In this document: in pieces, positions 41,256 through 47,586 of the stretch | Layout of the letters: each line of letters begins with the position of its first letter | Position numbering within the stretch: the stretch's first letter is position 1 | Assembly: GCA_964484055.1 (NCBI GenBank) | Contig: CAZAEC010000011.1 | Coordinates: 2,107 to 66,106 of the forward strand | DNA length: 64,000 nucleotides | Source of the DNA: an uncultured Clostridium sp. | GTDB taxonomy: Bacteria; Bacillota; Clostridia; Lachnospirales; Lachnospiraceae | Reading direction: 5' to 3' | Program-made: the position numbers and the translations under genes | Notes under the pieces: model-generated | Database searches by the model: none | Seen by the model: the letters and a program-made list of their open reading frames with translations, nothing else | Told to the model about the DNA's origin: nothing

Positions 41256-41318
41256 ATAATCTCCTATCTGATAAAAATAAATCCTTATTTTCCAAAACAG
41301 AGTGCGTTCTGTTTTATT

Positions 41319-41347
41319 ATAATAACAACTTTTTATATCATTGTCAA
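41319..41347 (-). promoter_or_regulatory. SigA promoter of ilvN-ilvC
   Basis: TTGACA-17 bp-TATTAT on the minus strand. Confidence 0.7.
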
Positions 41348-41362
41348 CACTTTATTCACGCA

Positions 41363-41391
41363 TTGATTAAAATATCGCAATATACTATAAT
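41363..41391 (+). promoter_or_regulatory. SigA promoter, back-to-back with the ilvN promoter
   Basis: TTGATT-17 bp-TATAAT. Confidence 0.7.
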
Positions 41392-41397
41392 ATATTC

Positions 41398-41570
41398 TAA
41401 GGGGCGACTCTGTACTTCATTGGCGTGCAGACAGAGTTTCTTTTACATGAACCACATTCATACAAAAGCGGGTACCCCTTTCGATTTAATAACCAGCAAG
41501 ACTCGTATACCCTTCTTTGGATGCTCTTGCAAATACAATTATACGGATTTCCTCTAATCTGTCCCCCCTA
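41398..41570 (+). ncRNA. Candidate structured ncRNA or long 5' leader (family not recognised)
   Basis: Begins at the expected start site of the 41363 promoter; several hairpins visible by eye; no convincing ORF. Confidence 0.35.
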
Positions 41571-41677
41571 AAAACCCAAAAATTGATAGGATACAACAAA
41601 AAATTATTGCATTTTTTCATTTTTTGACATTATAGCGAAAACAGACAGGATGTCCAAAACAACACCAAGGAGGAACT

Positions 41678-43006
41678 ATGAAAAGAATCACAACAACATT
41701 TTTAACCGGACTGCTTTTGCTGTCGCTACTTATCGGGTGTTCCAAAAAATCAAATTTAGACCCCGAAAATCCAGTCACATTAACGATGTGGCATGTATAC
41801 GGCGAACAAGCAGATTCCCCAATGAATCGTTTGGTAGAAGAATTTAACCGTACTACTGGTAAAGAAAAAGGAATCATTATTAATGTCTCCTTAATGTCCT
41901 CTACTTCACAAATCGGAGAAAAGCTCCTTGCTGCGCAAAACAGCGAAGCTGGTGCTATGAAAATGCCCGATTTATTTTTCTGTCATAACAATAATGTCCA
42001 AGAATTAGGCTCTGACATTTTACTCAATTGGCAGGATATCTTCACAGAAGAAGAGCTTGAAAATTATGTTCCTGAATTTTTAGAAGATGGTATGGTAGAT
42101 GATAATTTATCATTATTTCCTATTTCAAAATCTACCCACTTACTCTTTATTGCAGGAACCCAGTTTGATCGTTTTTCAAACGCGACTGGCGTAACCTACG
42201 ATTCGCTCTCTACATGGGATGGATTCTTTGACGCAGCTGAAAAGTATTATGAATATTCGAACGGAAAACCATTTTGTGCATTGGACTATTTAATCCGTGC
42301 AGTTGAACTAAATGCAATTGAAAAGGGAGGTCACGACTTCTACACAGAAGACGGGTGGTATGACTTTGAAAACGAAGTCTTCAAAGCGTCTTGGTTAGAA
42401 TTTGCCGAAGCCATTGCCAAAGGACATATCATTGTTTCCGATCTCTACTCCAACACACAGGTAATGACAGGTGAGGTCATAGCAGGACTTGGTTCATCCG
42501 CATCTATCCTTTATTATAATGATACAGTAACCTACCCTGACAACACCTCAGAACCAATGGATTTACAGATCTTACCACCACCTTCAGCCAATAATGCCGA
42601 TCTACTGATTACACAAGCAGGACCAGGGCTTTGTGCCTTAAAAACCACCGATCAAAATGCCGAAGCTGCTGCTGTATTCGCACGTTGGCTGACTGAAGCT
42701 GAACGCAACCTTGCATTTTGCGTTGAAACAGGTTATATGCCTGTAAATAAAGACTCCTTTGATAAAATACATGATTATGAATTCGAATCGGATGCATATA
42801 AAAATTTGTTTCATGCTATTAACACAGTTAATGAAACAGCAACTGCTGTTCGCGAGCCTTGTTTCGCAGGATATTACACTAAAATCTATTCTTTGTATGA
42901 CTCTCTGCGCGAGGTGCAAAAGACCATGCCAAATCGTTATAAAAACGGAGAAAATGCAGACATTTTATCAAATGAGCTTTGGAAACTATTCAAGAACATT
43001 GAATAA
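41678..43006 (+). CDS. Extracellular solute-binding lipoprotein (ABC sugar-binding/CUT1-like fold)
   Basis: Lipobox LLIGC (Cys21), VTLTMWH..G, LVEEFN, PDLF, TWDGFFDAAEK, TGYMPV motifs typical of this family. Confidence 0.85.
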   Translation: MKRITTTFLTGLLLLSLLIGCSKKSNLDPENPVTLTMWHVYGEQADSPMNRLVEEFNRTTGKEKGIIINVSLMSSTSQIGEKLLAAQNSEAGAMKMPDLFFCHNNNVQELGSDILLNWQDIFTEEELENYVPEFLEDGMVDDNLSLFPISKSTHLLFIAGTQFDRFSNATGVTYDSLSTWDGFFDAAEKYYEYSNGKPFCALDYLIRAVELNAIEKGGHDFYTEDGWYDFENEVFKASWLEFAEAIAKGHIIVSDLYSNTQVMTGEVIAGLGSSASILYYNDTVTYPDNTSEPMDLQILPPPSANNADLLITQAGPGLCALKTTDQNAEAAAVFARWLTEAERNLAFCVETGYMPVNKDSFDKIHDYEFESDAYKNLFHAINTVNETATAVREPCFAGYYTKIYSLYDSLREVQKTMPNRYKNGENADILSNELWKLFKNIE

Positions 43007-43020
43007 GGCGGTGACGGACA

Positions 43021-44661
43021 ATGAAGAGATCTAACGCTAGTAATAAGCAAACCTTAAAACGAAGACTCTTCTGTTATATGTGTATTTTAGCATTGCTGTT
43101 ATGTGCGCTATTAGTTGCCGGACTATTTCTTATAGGCAGCTTTACCGGCACCAAACAGCGCGTAGCCGAAACGCTTGAATTTCAGACTGAACTATTTGAA
43201 AAACAAATAGACTCTTATTACGAAAGTCTTGCTGTAATGAGTGTTCAACTCTCATATAATACGATTGAAGTCTTAGAAAATTATCTTGACACTAACCAGC
43301 TTGCTTTTGAGGATTTAAATAATTCAGAAACGTACATTGAAAATTTACAAGAACAATTAATCGAACCCCTACAGCACAAGCTGTGGGAGGCAGATTGTAC
43401 TGGTGCATTTCTCATGTTGGAAGCACAGGTTAATTCAAATATAGAAAATGCAAAGACTTCTCGCACTGGTATTTATCTTCAGCGTAATAGTTTAGAAGTT
43501 ACCGATACTCGTGTTCTTCTTTATCGAGGACTTTCCAAAGTCGGTAAAAACCATAACTGTATGCCACACCGAAAATGGAGATTGGAATTCAGCACGGATT
43601 TATTTCCGAATTATGATGACTTAAAAGCCGAGGCAGCTTTTCCTCTGAACCAAAGCTATCGCATTTCGGATGTAGTACTTCTTCCCGGTACTGATCAGCA
43701 TGTTATGCTGATGACTGTTCCAATCCTATCGGAGGACGGAACATTTTATGGACTTTGCGGTTTTGAACTAAACGAAGGATATTTTAAACAGATTTTTGCA
43801 CAGCCTTCCGAATTAGATCATGTCATTTTCTGTATTTCCACAAACAGTGATGAACCAAACCTATCAGAATCTACAACACTCTGTGCCGGTGTTTTAAATG
43901 AATATTATTTAGAACCATACGATAATTTTACTACAAAATCTTTTGGTAGCGGACTTACCGAATACCAAGGTGAAAATGAAGCCTATGTCGGTATCACAAA
44001 AGATATTTGGCTCTGTCCCTGCGAACACGCCTCTGCAATGAGTGTGCTGATACCTAAACATGATTACGAACGCATGTTATCTACTGATACATTGCGTGTA
44101 ATTCTACTGATCATTGCATTTTCAATTTCTGCTATTGGACTTTCCCTGTTCTTTGCAAGACAATATATAAAACCCATAAAGAACGCACTTGACAGTATCC
44201 ACAAAAAAGAATATATATACAACATTGCAGATACTGCAGAGATTAAAGATTTGTTTGCATTTCTAGCTGAACAAGATCGTATCAACGAAGAAGAATTAAA
44301 TCGACTTCGTCGCGAAAAAGCAGATGCTGTGACTGCTACAAATGAACTTCAAAGCAAATTCAATGAAACTGAAATGCAAAACAAACGCCTTGCATATTCC
44401 CGCAAAACAGAAATTGATCCTTATGATTATGAAAATTTCAAAAACAACCTTTCTATGTTAACCGCAAAGGAACAAGAAGTTTTCAACTTTTATATGCAAG
44501 GAAAAACAGTAAAAGAAATTATTGCCGCTTTAGGATTAAAAGAATCTACTGTTCGTTTTCACAACAAAAATATTTATTCAAAATTAGGAGTACACTCACT
44601 CAAACAACTGCTTAGATATGCGGCCGTCTTAAAGCAAGAAGAAGACGATACATCAGAATAA
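43021..44661 (+). CDS. Membrane-spanning sensor with a C-terminal LuxR-type HTH (one-component regulator)
   Basis: Two hydrophobic helices flanking a ~320-aa segment; C-terminal LTAKEQEVF....QGKTVKEIIAALGLKESTVRFHNKNIYSKLGV. Confidence 0.85.
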   Translation: MKRSNASNKQTLKRRLFCYMCILALLLCALLVAGLFLIGSFTGTKQRVAETLEFQTELFEKQIDSYYESLAVMSVQLSYNTIEVLENYLDTNQLAFEDLNNSETYIENLQEQLIEPLQHKLWEADCTGAFLMLEAQVNSNIENAKTSRTGIYLQRNSLEVTDTRVLLYRGLSKVGKNHNCMPHRKWRLEFSTDLFPNYDDLKAEAAFPLNQSYRISDVVLLPGTDQHVMLMTVPILSEDGTFYGLCGFELNEGYFKQIFAQPSELDHVIFCISTNSDEPNLSESTTLCAGVLNEYYLEPYDNFTTKSFGSGLTEYQGENEAYVGITKDIWLCPCEHASAMSVLIPKHDYERMLSTDTLRVILLIIAFSISAIGLSLFFARQYIKPIKNALDSIHKKEYIYNIADTAEIKDLFAFLAEQDRINEEELNRLRREKADAVTATNELQSKFNETEMQNKRLAYSRKTEIDPYDYENFKNNLSMLTAKEQEVFNFYMQGKTVKEIIAALGLKESTVRFHNKNIYSKLGVHSLKQLLRYAAVLKQEEDDTSE

Positions 44662-44662
44662 C

Positions 44663-44722
44663 AAAAAGGGAGTATCACTCTGCAACGAATAATTTTCATT
44701 CATCACAGCATGATACTCCCTT
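44663..44722. repeat. Palindromic ~60-bp element, copy 1 (probable bidirectional terminator)
   Basis: AAGGGAGTATCA ... TGATACTCCCTT arms; similar to 61281-61340. Confidence 0.75.
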
Positions 44723-46755: not shown

Positions 46756-47586
46756 ATGAGTCCAAAAAAGAAAAAATCAATAGATCTCATCGATCATTTC
46801 GGAAATGATTTCGAAGTTTCATATGAAGATGAAATACCTCTTACATATAAGATAGAACCAGACCCTCGTCGTAAAAAGAAGAAAAAGGATGGTGGTCCCA
46901 ACGTAATGAATGTCAGTTCTGACACAATTTACGCCTCTCGATCTAAACACCAAATAACAAAACAAAGTTTTAAACCATCCTTTGAAGAGGAATCATATGA
47001 CGATGAGGATAACGATTATTATGATGAGGACTATGATCAATCATACCGTTCTTCCCAAAAACGAAAACATAAAAAAATGACTCCAATCGCTGCACCGATC
47101 AAAAAAAGCACAAAAGCTGCTTATAGCTTGATTCAAACACTACTCAGAAATCTTTCCCTTGTTTTGATCCTGGCGATCATCGTATATATGGCACTTAATT
47201 TTATAAAAGGAAGCATCCCATACGGTAATATCGAAGAAGAACTCCACACGCAAGATTTCTCCTACAAACTTGTCGGATATTTCACGGTTGTTGCCAGCTT
47301 AATCCTTTATGAACTTTTATCAGCTCTTTGGACAATGTCCAAAGCACGTGTAAGAGATCAATATGGTCGACACAAGGAAGATGTTGGAAGAGGTTTATTT
47401 TCTTTCATTCTCATTTATCTCTGCTCGTACGCATCCTTTTTACTAAGCAGTTATATTCCAGAGACACATGATGTAGTACTTGGCATTCAAGGAGCTTTAA
47501 CTGTATTTGGCGCAATGCACAACGGTTTGTTTGGCATATGCATCGCAGGTGTCATCTCCTGTCTGCTAAGAAAATATCATTTATAA
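46756..47586 (+). CDS. Hypothetical membrane protein with a charged N-terminal half and 3-4 C-terminal hydrophobic helices
   Basis: AAGGAGA RBS, strong downstream terminator, hydrophobic segments; no family recognised. Confidence 0.75.
   Translation: MSPKKKKSIDLIDHFGNDFEVSYEDEIPLTYKIEPDPRRKKKKKDGGPNVMNVSSDTIYASRSKHQITKQSFKPSFEEESYDDEDNDYYDEDYDQSYRSSQKRKHKKMTPIAAPIKKSTKAAYSLIQTLLRNLSLVLILAIIVYMALNFIKGSIPYGNIEEELHTQDFSYKLVGYFTVVASLILYELLSALWTMSKARVRDQYGRHKEDVGRGLFSFILIYLCSYASFLLSSYIPETHDVVLGIQGALTVFGAMHNGLFGICIAGVISCLLRKYHL

Follow-up and report, generated by a model that had tools for sequence, protein, structure and literature searches.

A solute-binding lipoprotein, a transmembrane LuxR-type regulator and a structured leader RNA: a conserved candidate one-component signalling module of gut Clostridia

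What does a lipoprotein of the solute-binding protein (SBP) type do when no transporter gene stands beside it and its companion is the gene for a membrane-spanning, LuxR-type regulator? The question is raised by a locus within a 64,000-nucleotide stretch of DNA from an uncultured Clostridium sp. of the Lachnospiraceae (GenBank assembly GCA_964484055.1, contig CAZAEC010000011.1, forward-strand positions 2,107 to 66,106), which we call the window and whose first letter is position 1. There an SBP gene is followed, after 14 nt (43007-43020), by a regulator gene on the same strand, with a structured RNA leader upstream of both. We put the probability at roughly 60% that leader, lipoprotein and regulator, the last with the order transmembrane (TM) segment, double-Cache domain, TM segment, helix and LuxR helix-turn-helix (HTH), make up a module for SBP-dependent transmembrane one-component signalling. 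The two genes and the predicted parts of the regulator are listed here.

41678-43006, + strand: SBP gene, 442 aa
43021-44661, + strand: regulator gene, 546 aa
43078-43134, regulator aa 20-38: first TM segment (TM1), from hydropathy
43150-44055, regulator aa ~44-345: predicted double-Cache domain, from AlphaFold2 (AF2) and Foldseek
44098-44154, regulator aa 360-378: second TM segment (TM2), from hydropathy
44236-44394, regulator aa 406-458: long helix, from the AF2 model
44455-44622, regulator aa 479-534: GerE HTH, from Pfam

A first-pass annotation had described the two open reading frames (ORFs), the lipobox of the SBP, the 14-bp gap, TM1, TM2 and the LuxR HTH, and all of these were recovered in the ORF list, the Pfam searches and the hydropathy profile. 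Both ORFs lie far beyond chance, since each has hundreds of full-length homologues. The lipoprotein belongs to SBP_bac_8 (PF13416; 1.3e-20, 74.8 bits against a cut-off of 27), and its N-terminus, MKRITTTFLTGLLLLSLLIGC, ends in the lipobox LLIGC, in which Cys21 is invariant and Gly20 nearly so among 53 homologues; it thus carries an export signal and a Gram-positive lipid anchor. Its AF2 model (predicted local distance difference test score, pLDDT, of 90) has the two-lobed alpha/beta fold of periplasmic binding proteins and is CUT1/MalE-like. Foldseek aligned the model with CUT1-type oligosaccharide SBPs, UgpB and a dinucleotide-binding protein at E ~1e-19 and 13-18% identity, with TM-scores of 0.70-0.76 against MalE-, UgpB- and CbpB-type SBPs, and a PDB sequence search with the SBP returned nothing at E<=0.01. 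Because the structural matches are this distant and the PDB search yielded no sequence homologue, the ligand class is loosely constrained; an oligosaccharide-like or phosphodiester-like molecule seems most likely.

The regulator ends in a GerE/LuxR HTH (PF00196; 6e-16, 58.2 bits against a cut-off of 23.5), and its family profile matched the GerE, RhlR, NarL and VraR structures in the PDB over aa 475-540, in the HTH domains only. Its charges follow the positive-inside pattern, with +6 at the N-terminus, +3 after TM2 and -2 on the outer flanks. Two hydrophobic segments and this bias together predict an N-in, loop-out, C-in topology, with the ~320-aa middle part outside the cell and the HTH inside, which supports the extracytoplasmic segment claimed in the first-pass annotation. 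The AF2 model, built on a 72-sequence alignment (pLDDT 83), runs from TM1 through a long helix, two alpha/beta modules, TM2 within a continuous helix and a 50-residue helix to a four-helix HTH, and its sensor part fits the dCache layout of a long N-terminal helix and two PAS-like modules between two TM helices. Nearly all of the top 50 Foldseek matches in the PDB were Cache-type sensor domains, mainly dCache ligand-binding domains of chemoreceptors (E 5e-7 to 2e-4, probability 1.0, target TM-score 0.31-0.63); they include MkcA, PctA/B/C, Tlp3, Mlp24/37 and TlpQ, plus DctB and RsbU. A Cache-like sensor had been suggested earlier as a possibility, and the models give it the shape of a double-Cache fold.

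HisKA, HATPase, REC, GGDEF, EAL and HAMP were all without a match in the regulator at E<=1, in agreement with the earlier statement that kinase, receiver, GGDEF and EAL motifs are absent. Response_reg and Autoind_bind gave no match either, and NCBIfam matches were confined to the HTH. With no kinase, receiver or autoinducer-binding domain, membership of a two-component system, of the NarL-FixJ response regulators or of the quorum-sensing LuxR proteins was ruled out; what the polypeptide holds, two TM segments and a GerE HTH with no phosphotransfer domain, is the make-up of a transmembrane one-component regulator. Two extracytoplasmic cysteines of the Cache region, at aa 126 and 246 (window ~43396 and ~43756), are invariant in the 72 homologues, as is the motif MPHRKWRLEF (aa 181-190), and these residues could form a disulphide, a metal site or a docking surface.

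The pair is found far outside the window. A word-indexed search returned 747 regulator homologues, full-length to at least 51% identity, and a survey of one genome per species confirmed at least 551 stretches with a regulator relative, nearly all from animal-gut Clostridia (Oscillospiraceae, Ruminococcaceae and others); 80 loci were kept for analysis. Cultured bacteria that carry it include Butyricicoccus pullicaecorum (DSM 23266), Massiliimalia massiliensis, Murdochiella and a Lachnoclostridium. Wherever upstream DNA exists in the 80 loci, the regulator gene is immediately preceded by an SBP homologue in the same orientation, with the exception of L060 and L039, where the SBP has been lost or cut down. 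Identity across loci is 50-84% for the SBP against 37-75% for the regulator, as expected if the SBP defines the ligand, and the mean column identity of the SBP alignment is 67%. A regulator with only 26% sensor identity still follows an SBP_bac_8 gene, with three divergent zinc-ribbon genes upstream. A search of 1.84 billion representatives with the sensor alone (aa 1-400) gave 614 clusters at the 50% identity level, and nearly all full-length matches measured 510-590 aa; among ten distant members, nine carried GerE and none a kinase, receiver or cyclase domain. Given matches of this length that bear GerE and lack phosphorelay domains, the sensor exists only in the ~510-590-aa LuxR architecture.

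Transporter genes do not accompany the pair. A Pfam census of the 148 ORFs within three genes of it at 49 loci did not have BPD_transp_1 among the families with at least two ORFs, and no cluster of permeases was seen among the neighbours of the pair. In the window neither flank has an adjacent BPD_transp_1 permease or transporter ATPase gene, so that the locus lacks the composition of an ABC importer operon, though a distal transporter may exist. Adjacency to a receptor gene with no permease at hand is the hallmark of SBPs that only signal, for example NspS, LuxP and XylFII. The first-pass annotation had called the pair permease-free, which the window flanks and the survey across hundreds of genomes both uphold, and it had named three outcomes that would speak decisively against its model: SBPs that usually stand beside permeases, an N-terminal part that is not extracytoplasmic, and genes that do not co-occur. 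None of the three was observed.

Evidence for transcription comes from chicken-gut metatranscriptome contigs mapped on the B. pullicaecorum locus, where depth was low and DNA carry-over is possible. One contig, from a relative of this species, spans the SBP/regulator junction, and a second one extends from within the leader, 168 nt upstream, as far as the SBP gene; at that low depth the two fit one transcript with a long 5' untranslated region (UTR). RNA-seq of the window's own organism was sought, and its sequence was present in DNA metagenomes only.

Some variants of the module deserve a description of their own. L060 (2593-4695) keeps the leader (43.6 bits) and the regulator, with the SBP gene reduced to a remnant of ~50 aa; it looks like a natural SBP-loss variant and is useful for testing dependence on the SBP. 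B. pullicaecorum and a relative (L044, 2768-5754; L051, 2645-4228) have a second, divergent module copy, head-to-head with the first and with a zinc-ribbon gene between the two. In the L044 second copy both the SBP (35% identical to the window SBP) and the regulator were called, in that of L051 the regulator ORF was called and the SBP is marked by a tblastn match only, and in both loci the covariance model of the leader detects the first copy alone. A 706-aa protein with SBP_bac_8 and GerE on a single 2.4-kb contig (P0104) was considered as a natural fusion and rejected, as its length implies an internal deletion joining both genes; it was left out of the analysis as a probable artefact of assembly or deletion.

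The third component of the module precedes the SBP gene, together with the signals that would start its transcription and translation.

41363-41391, + strand: putative sigma-70-like promoter TTGATT-17-TATAAT, directly 5' of the leader RNA, from a consensus scan (10/12)
41396-41562, + strand: structured 5' leader RNA, ~165 nt, from covariance model R1 (140 bits, E 4e-28)
41667-41673, + strand: Shine-Dalgarno sequence AAGGAGG of the SBP gene, by direct sequence reading

The promoter is proposed from its match to the consensus. In many homologous loci a TTGAC-like/TATAAT pair precedes the GGGGCGG start at the matching position, and the succession of sigma-70-like promoter and leader is found in about half of the loci. 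The leader contains the stem P1 (GGGG/CCCC) and three hairpins: P2, with a covarying stem and the conserved loop ACTTCRTTGGCGYGCAG; P3, which is variable; and P4, with a GCAAGA/TCTTGC stem and an anti-Shine-Dalgarno-like loop, TATACCCTYCTT. Through TACCC the P4 loop TATACCCTCCTT pairs with an upstream GGGTA as a long-range pseudoknot; 3' of P4 follow an ATTATAC box and a short hairpin. This structure was drawn by hand and with a covariance model, RNAalifold on the raw MAFFT alignment having given the pseudoknot helix only (the hairpins were misaligned there). In the raw alignment of 21 sequences 77.6% of cells are paired, against 39-52% with the partners slid, and 17 pairs show compensatory changes; none of 500 shuffles reaches the observed values. 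The model-based alignment of 28 distinct sequences has 75.5% of cells paired, against 40-49% slid, and compensatory changes in 21 of 28 pairs, and the frequent G-U pairs of the leader fit the + strand only.

The leader is tied to this operon. In 28-30 of 81 sources the covariance model found exactly one copy per locus, on the SBP strand and directly upstream of the SBP gene. An independent pattern scan of metagenome contigs gave 23 matches with the SBP gene downstream in all 21 that were informative, the regulator too where the contig reaches it, and no leader before another type of gene among them; the pairs so linked include proteins only 37-42% and 25-32% identical to those of the window. 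Four metagenome loci (L084, L093, L098 and L102) have leaders of 142-144 bits before an SBP 42% and a regulator 25-32% identical to the window proteins. Because these leaders score as high as the window's own, the RNA appears more conserved than the proteins. The window upstream region and 14 homologous loci, searched against Rfam 15 at gathering and lenient thresholds (E<=1-10), returned chance snoRNA/miRNA-like matches only, and on the available comparisons the leader is a candidate new RNA motif without earlier description.

The leader loop CCUCCUU is complementary to the ribosome-binding site AAGGAGG, and a short hairpin with a U-run stands before GTCCCC in many, but not all, members. Taken together, the anti-Shine-Dalgarno-like loop and the hairpin with its U-run make translational or attenuation control conceivable; the loop suggests the former, and the leader may serve as a second, cis-acting control layer of the operon. 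A bolder proposal is that it is a new riboswitch-class aptamer, with a P1-closed junction and a pseudoknot that ties up the anti-Shine-Dalgarno-like loop, by which the module would integrate two signals; we hold this as a tentative idea that is more doubtful than probable.

Between the leader and the SBP gene lie short G-rich words that look like binding sites for a regulator.

41561-41590, + strand: candidate operator, a GTCCCCCC anchor and an imperfect inverted repeat ending in TTGATAGG (41583-41590), from conserved architecture
41624-41649, + strand: degenerate downstream words TTGACATT (41624-41631) and CAGACAGG (41642-41649), from comparison with relatives

The composite site at 41561-41590 is unique within the window. 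Nearly all loci show its architecture between -135 and -75 relative to the start codon of the SBP gene, and in almost every locus the order is TTGTCCCC with the inverted repeat, an A/T-rich spacer, two to three direct repeats of the right-arm word and a small hairpin before the ribosome-binding site. The window words at 41624-41649 are the counterparts of two direct repeats that relatives have at a spacing of 11-12 bp (L021, TTGATAGGAAAACAGATAGG; L084, TTGATAGGAAAATTGATAGG; L050, GGTGGGGAAATGGGTTGGG). The word differs by lineage, being TTGATAGG/TTGAGGGG, GGTGGGG/GGTTGGG or GGGTAGG, and the recognition helix of the regulator likewise falls into classes: STVRFHN[RK]NIY..SLKQLL, STLK[YF]HNHN.L..SRKQML and NGLKYHNKNIY..SRKELL. 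Word class corresponds to recognition-helix class in 51/51 loci, and two further, independent metagenome loci follow the rule. A tree made from the sensor domain only requires, by parsimony, the same 8 changes for word class as for HTH class, as independent switches. Word clusters occur mainly, and in most loci solely, before the SBP gene; a few extra clusters scattered in GC-rich loci look like chance. The pattern makes it most likely that the regulator binds the repeated words before its own operon, and a DNA operator for the LuxR HTH implies autoregulation. This departs from the first-pass annotation, which had placed the regulon elsewhere or in the upstream RNA: the RNA turned out to be the operon's own structured 5' leader, and the candidate words stand before that same operon.

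Other features of this region were recorded alongside. The GC-rich inverted repeat was considered as an intrinsic terminator and ruled out, as no U-run follows it on either strand. In most loci a hairpin lies directly 5' of the SBP Shine-Dalgarno sequence, with a stem whose sequence varies while its pairing is kept (L021, GGTGGCATCCCCACC; L050, GACGGTTAAACCGTC; weak in the window, at 41642-41656); it could stabilise the 5' end of the mRNA, act in translation or be one more palindromic site. On the minus strand, a strong promoter-like site (TGGACA-16-TATAAT, 41656-41629, 11/12) lies inside the word region, is directed antisense toward the leader and overlaps the palindrome GACAT...ATGTC.

How might such a module work? 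The SBP, tethered on the outer face of the membrane, would capture an external ligand and dock on the double-Cache domain of the regulator, in the manner of LuxP with LuxQ, NspS with MbaA and CBP with ChiS. A conformational change passing through TM2 and the long cytoplasmic helix would then re-orient the pair of LuxR HTH domains, which would bind the TTGATAGG-type words, as inverted and direct repeats, between leader and SBP start codon. In this way the module would autoregulate without phosphotransfer, and it would presumably also act on promoters elsewhere in the genome. We infer the docking of the SBP, the ligand class, the DNA binding and the direction of regulation.

Several points weigh against this account. 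The contact between SBP and Cache domain is drawn by analogy with other systems. Pfam dCache_1 stays below threshold on the regulator (14.4 against 45 bits, E 0.028, aa 205-265 only), so that the sensor would have to be a divergent Cache domain, and its double-Cache assignment rests on the predicted fold. The downstream direct repeats of the window are degenerate, the first of them poorly preserved, and a regulon search by word clusters in each 17-kb locus and in the 64-kb window found no second target. A consensus scan gave no clear sigma-70 promoter between leader and SBP gene, and the words fall within the putative 5' UTR, where a role at the RNA level is possible. Finally, the agreement of HTH and words could derive in part from joint recombination of the HTH with the upstream region.

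The chief competitor to a co-sensing SBP, which we think possible but unlikely, is that the double-Cache domain senses the ligand directly and the SBP is the regulated product of the operon, perhaps a surface scavenging or retention protein or the receptor of a distal ABC importer. In most studied dCache domains it is the membrane-distal module of the domain itself that takes up small ligands (PMC8050422), and the invariant residues of the regulator (MPHRKWRLEF, YLQ, LLYRGL, GLCGFE) cluster in this module; the SBP is moreover the first gene of an apparently autoregulated operon, and some signalling SBPs (CBP, ChvE) also serve transporters. A mere cargo protein sits less well, however, with an SBP-regulator adjacency that is kept down to 26% sensor identity and is permease-free, as with NspS, LuxP and XylFII, or with an SBP conserved above the sensor, as expected of the component that defines the ligand. 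L060, which lost the SBP yet kept leader and regulator, also belongs to this comparison. A decayed sugar ABC-transporter operon that has lost its permeases, with the regulator adjacent by chance, would account for the CUT1-type fold, which is typical of ABC importers; this explanation is effectively refuted by the recurrence of the same pair as intact, full-length genes in the at least 551 stretches of species-representative genomes, by the strong conservation of the SBP columns, by the census, in which the permease family was not recurrent nearby, and by a leader specific to these SBP genes.

Another alternative concerns the words, which with the inverted repeat might be RNA elements of the long 5' UTR that pair alternatively with C-rich or anti-Shine-Dalgarno-like segments of the leader; control of the operon would then rest in essence on RNA, and the HTH would act on other, unseen promoters. 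The words do lie downstream of a promoter-proximal structured RNA, and a metatranscriptome contig covers the stretch in which they fall. The two arms of the inverted repeat are complementary to each other and vary in concert from lineage to lineage, the P4 loop CCCUCCUU and the ribosome-binding site AAGGAGG are likewise complementary, and a short covarying hairpin stands directly 5' of that site. We nevertheless consider this improbable, more so than direct sensing by the Cache domain. Mid-arm mismatches are uncompensated in L066, L069, L076, L077 and L014, the spacing of 11-12 bp between direct repeats fits binding on one face of a DNA helix, word class tracks the recognition helix throughout, and the leader loop sequence is identical in loci of different word class. 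A DNA operator is thus the better reading, because arm mismatches so often go uncompensated and word class is independent of the leader loop.

Signalling by an SBP through a membrane-bound, DNA-binding partner has precedents, each of which shares a part of the present module. SBPs stimulate dCache-type receptors, for example in LuxP-LuxQ and NspS-MbaA, and the outputs known to be stimulated by SBPs are chemoreceptors, kinases, cyclic di-GMP enzymes and Ser/Thr kinases (PMC8050422). As in our pair, a dedicated SBP gene adjoins the membrane receptor gene in LuxP-LuxQ, NspS-MbaA and XylFII-LytS; NspS is also an SBP_bac_8 protein, and the LuxQ and MbaA sensors are dCache-like (PMC8050422). The output of LuxQ, MbaA and LytS, however, is a histidine kinase or a GGDEF/EAL enzyme that acts via second steps, whereas here the output domain is a transcription factor. 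In CBP-ChiS of Vibrio cholerae a periplasmic SBP governs a membrane protein that binds DNA (PMC12704726); as here, the SBP is combined with a membrane-embedded protein with a dCache-like sensor, and ChiS binds DNA directly while it stays in the membrane (PMC12704726; PMC8050422). ChiS is a hybrid histidine kinase whose phosphorylation gates DNA binding, whereas our regulator has no kinase or receiver and a LuxR/GerE HTH instead; CBP also serves the chitobiose ABC transporter, whereas the SBP here has no transporter nearby.

Transmembrane regulators in general are widespread (PMC10269533), and those of the LuxR/GerE type without a phosphorelay include DadR, CadR and HcdR of Eggerthella lenta (PMC9734109) as well as BguR of marine Bacteroidota and SusR (bioRxiv 10.64898/2026.01.10.698779). 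Like the present regulator, these have a membrane-anchored C-terminal GerE HTH with no phosphorelay, and they activate genes from the membrane. DadR-type proteins differ in having 10-12 TM helices and no extracytoplasmic domain, and BguR in having a tandem beta-propeller sensor and one TM helix; DadR-type proteins, BguR and SusR have neither a partner SBP nor a structured RNA leader, and all adjoin their target catabolic genes, unlike the pair described here. ToxR/ToxS and VtrA/VtrC also combine a membrane-tethered transcription factor with a second extracytoplasmic protein in the same operon, but in ToxR and VtrA the DNA-binding domain is a winged helix at the N-terminus, there is one TM helix only, and the partner is small and lipocalin-like; the orientation is the reverse of that seen here and the folds are unrelated. 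ToxR-like membership was ruled out by the type of DNA-binding domain and by the orientation. We did not find the combination of a dedicated SBP, a double-Cache domain, a LuxR domain as direct output and a structured leader RNA of the module's own described in the literature, and the module proteins carry generic names only.

The genes around the pair offer a lead on what it may control. The statement of the first-pass annotation that no effector gene stands beside the pair is right for the window and fails elsewhere: a zinc-ribbon/SPFH/TPM cluster adjoins the pair, usually divergently, in 27 of the 40 loci whose upstream DNA reaches 4 kb or more. Its members are small zinc-ribbon proteins, DUF6935, a Band_7_1 SPFH protein with a zinc ribbon, DUF4428, a DUF5067 lipoprotein, a zinc-ribbon membrane protein and a TPM-domain protein, and zinc ribbons, Band_7_1 and DUF4428 rank top in the neighbour census. 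In Murdochiella-like loci SPFH and zinc-ribbon genes lie 3' of the regulator on the same strand. A search of the window for SPFH, zinc-ribbon, TPM, DUF4428, DUF5067 and DUF6935 neighbours found none, and no word array was seen at the cluster genes in the 17-kb loci. Since the cluster is without a word array and absent from the window, it is a candidate regulon or functional partner and nothing more. The composition resembles pspA-ydjGHI, an envelope-stress operon of Bacillus subtilis, in which YdjI (SPFH) and YdjG (zinc ribbon) recall the Band_7_1 and zinc-ribbon neighbours (PMC9239133, PMC8581546); no PspA homologue was seen, and we treat this likeness in composition as a lead, for a cluster that the window does not have.

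In the window the pair is bounded by housekeeping genes and by one further RNA feature.

44666-44722, strand not assigned: long hairpin in the gap where the regulator and ABC-F genes converge (RNA fold -26 kcal/mol, z = -4.0)

Bordered by an A-run and a U-rich tract, this hairpin is probably a bidirectional terminator that ends the operon. The downstream flank is the convergent ABC-F gene, whose product has two ABC_tran domains, ABC_tran_Xtn and a C-terminal domain (CTD) and no membrane domain, and the upstream flank consists of ilvN (ALS_ss_C) and ilvC on the minus strand. Directly before ilvN (41256-41350, minus strand) are the hairpin AACAGAACGCACTCTGTT and a U-rich tract, which could be an attenuator-like leader of ilvNC; the same region contains a near-consensus extended -10 promoter, TTGACA-17-TATTAT (41347-41319, minus strand), and gave no T-box or other Rfam match. 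Farther downstream, a 276-aa ORF (46756-47586, + strand) between ABC-F and rplT has a Lys/Asp-rich N-terminal half, several hydrophobic segments and no Pfam match, and upstream of infC-rpmI-rplT lies what is probably a divergent leader of ribosomal protein L20 (49017-49152, minus strand), which matches RF00558 below threshold (34.4 bits against a gathering cut-off of 58.7, E 0.0012).

The module is real, widespread and conserved, and the concept of SBP-dependent one-component signalling already has precedents. What it would add, if the proposed mechanism is true, is a plain transmembrane LuxR factor as the receiver, and with it the shortest route yet known by which an external ligand, once bound by an SBP, acts on a promoter. 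With at least 551 stretches and 614 sensor clusters the family is large, and it resides without functional annotation in the abundant, poorly studied Oscillospiraceae and Ruminococcaceae of the gut. The whole model is testable in cultured carriers (B. pullicaecorum DSM 23266, M. massiliensis and Murdochiella), and the interchangeable predicted word classes, matched to the recognition helix, together with the small size of the module make it an attractive orthogonal sensor chassis for anaerobes. Should the leader also prove to be an aptamer, the external ligand would be read by SBP, double-Cache domain and LuxR HTH at the DNA words, and an intracellular metabolite, or an imported or processed form of the external signal, would be read by the RNA. 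That would make the operon a self-contained switch with two inputs and no kinase, widespread in gut Clostridia and possibly governing the zinc-ribbon/SPFH envelope-stress cluster.

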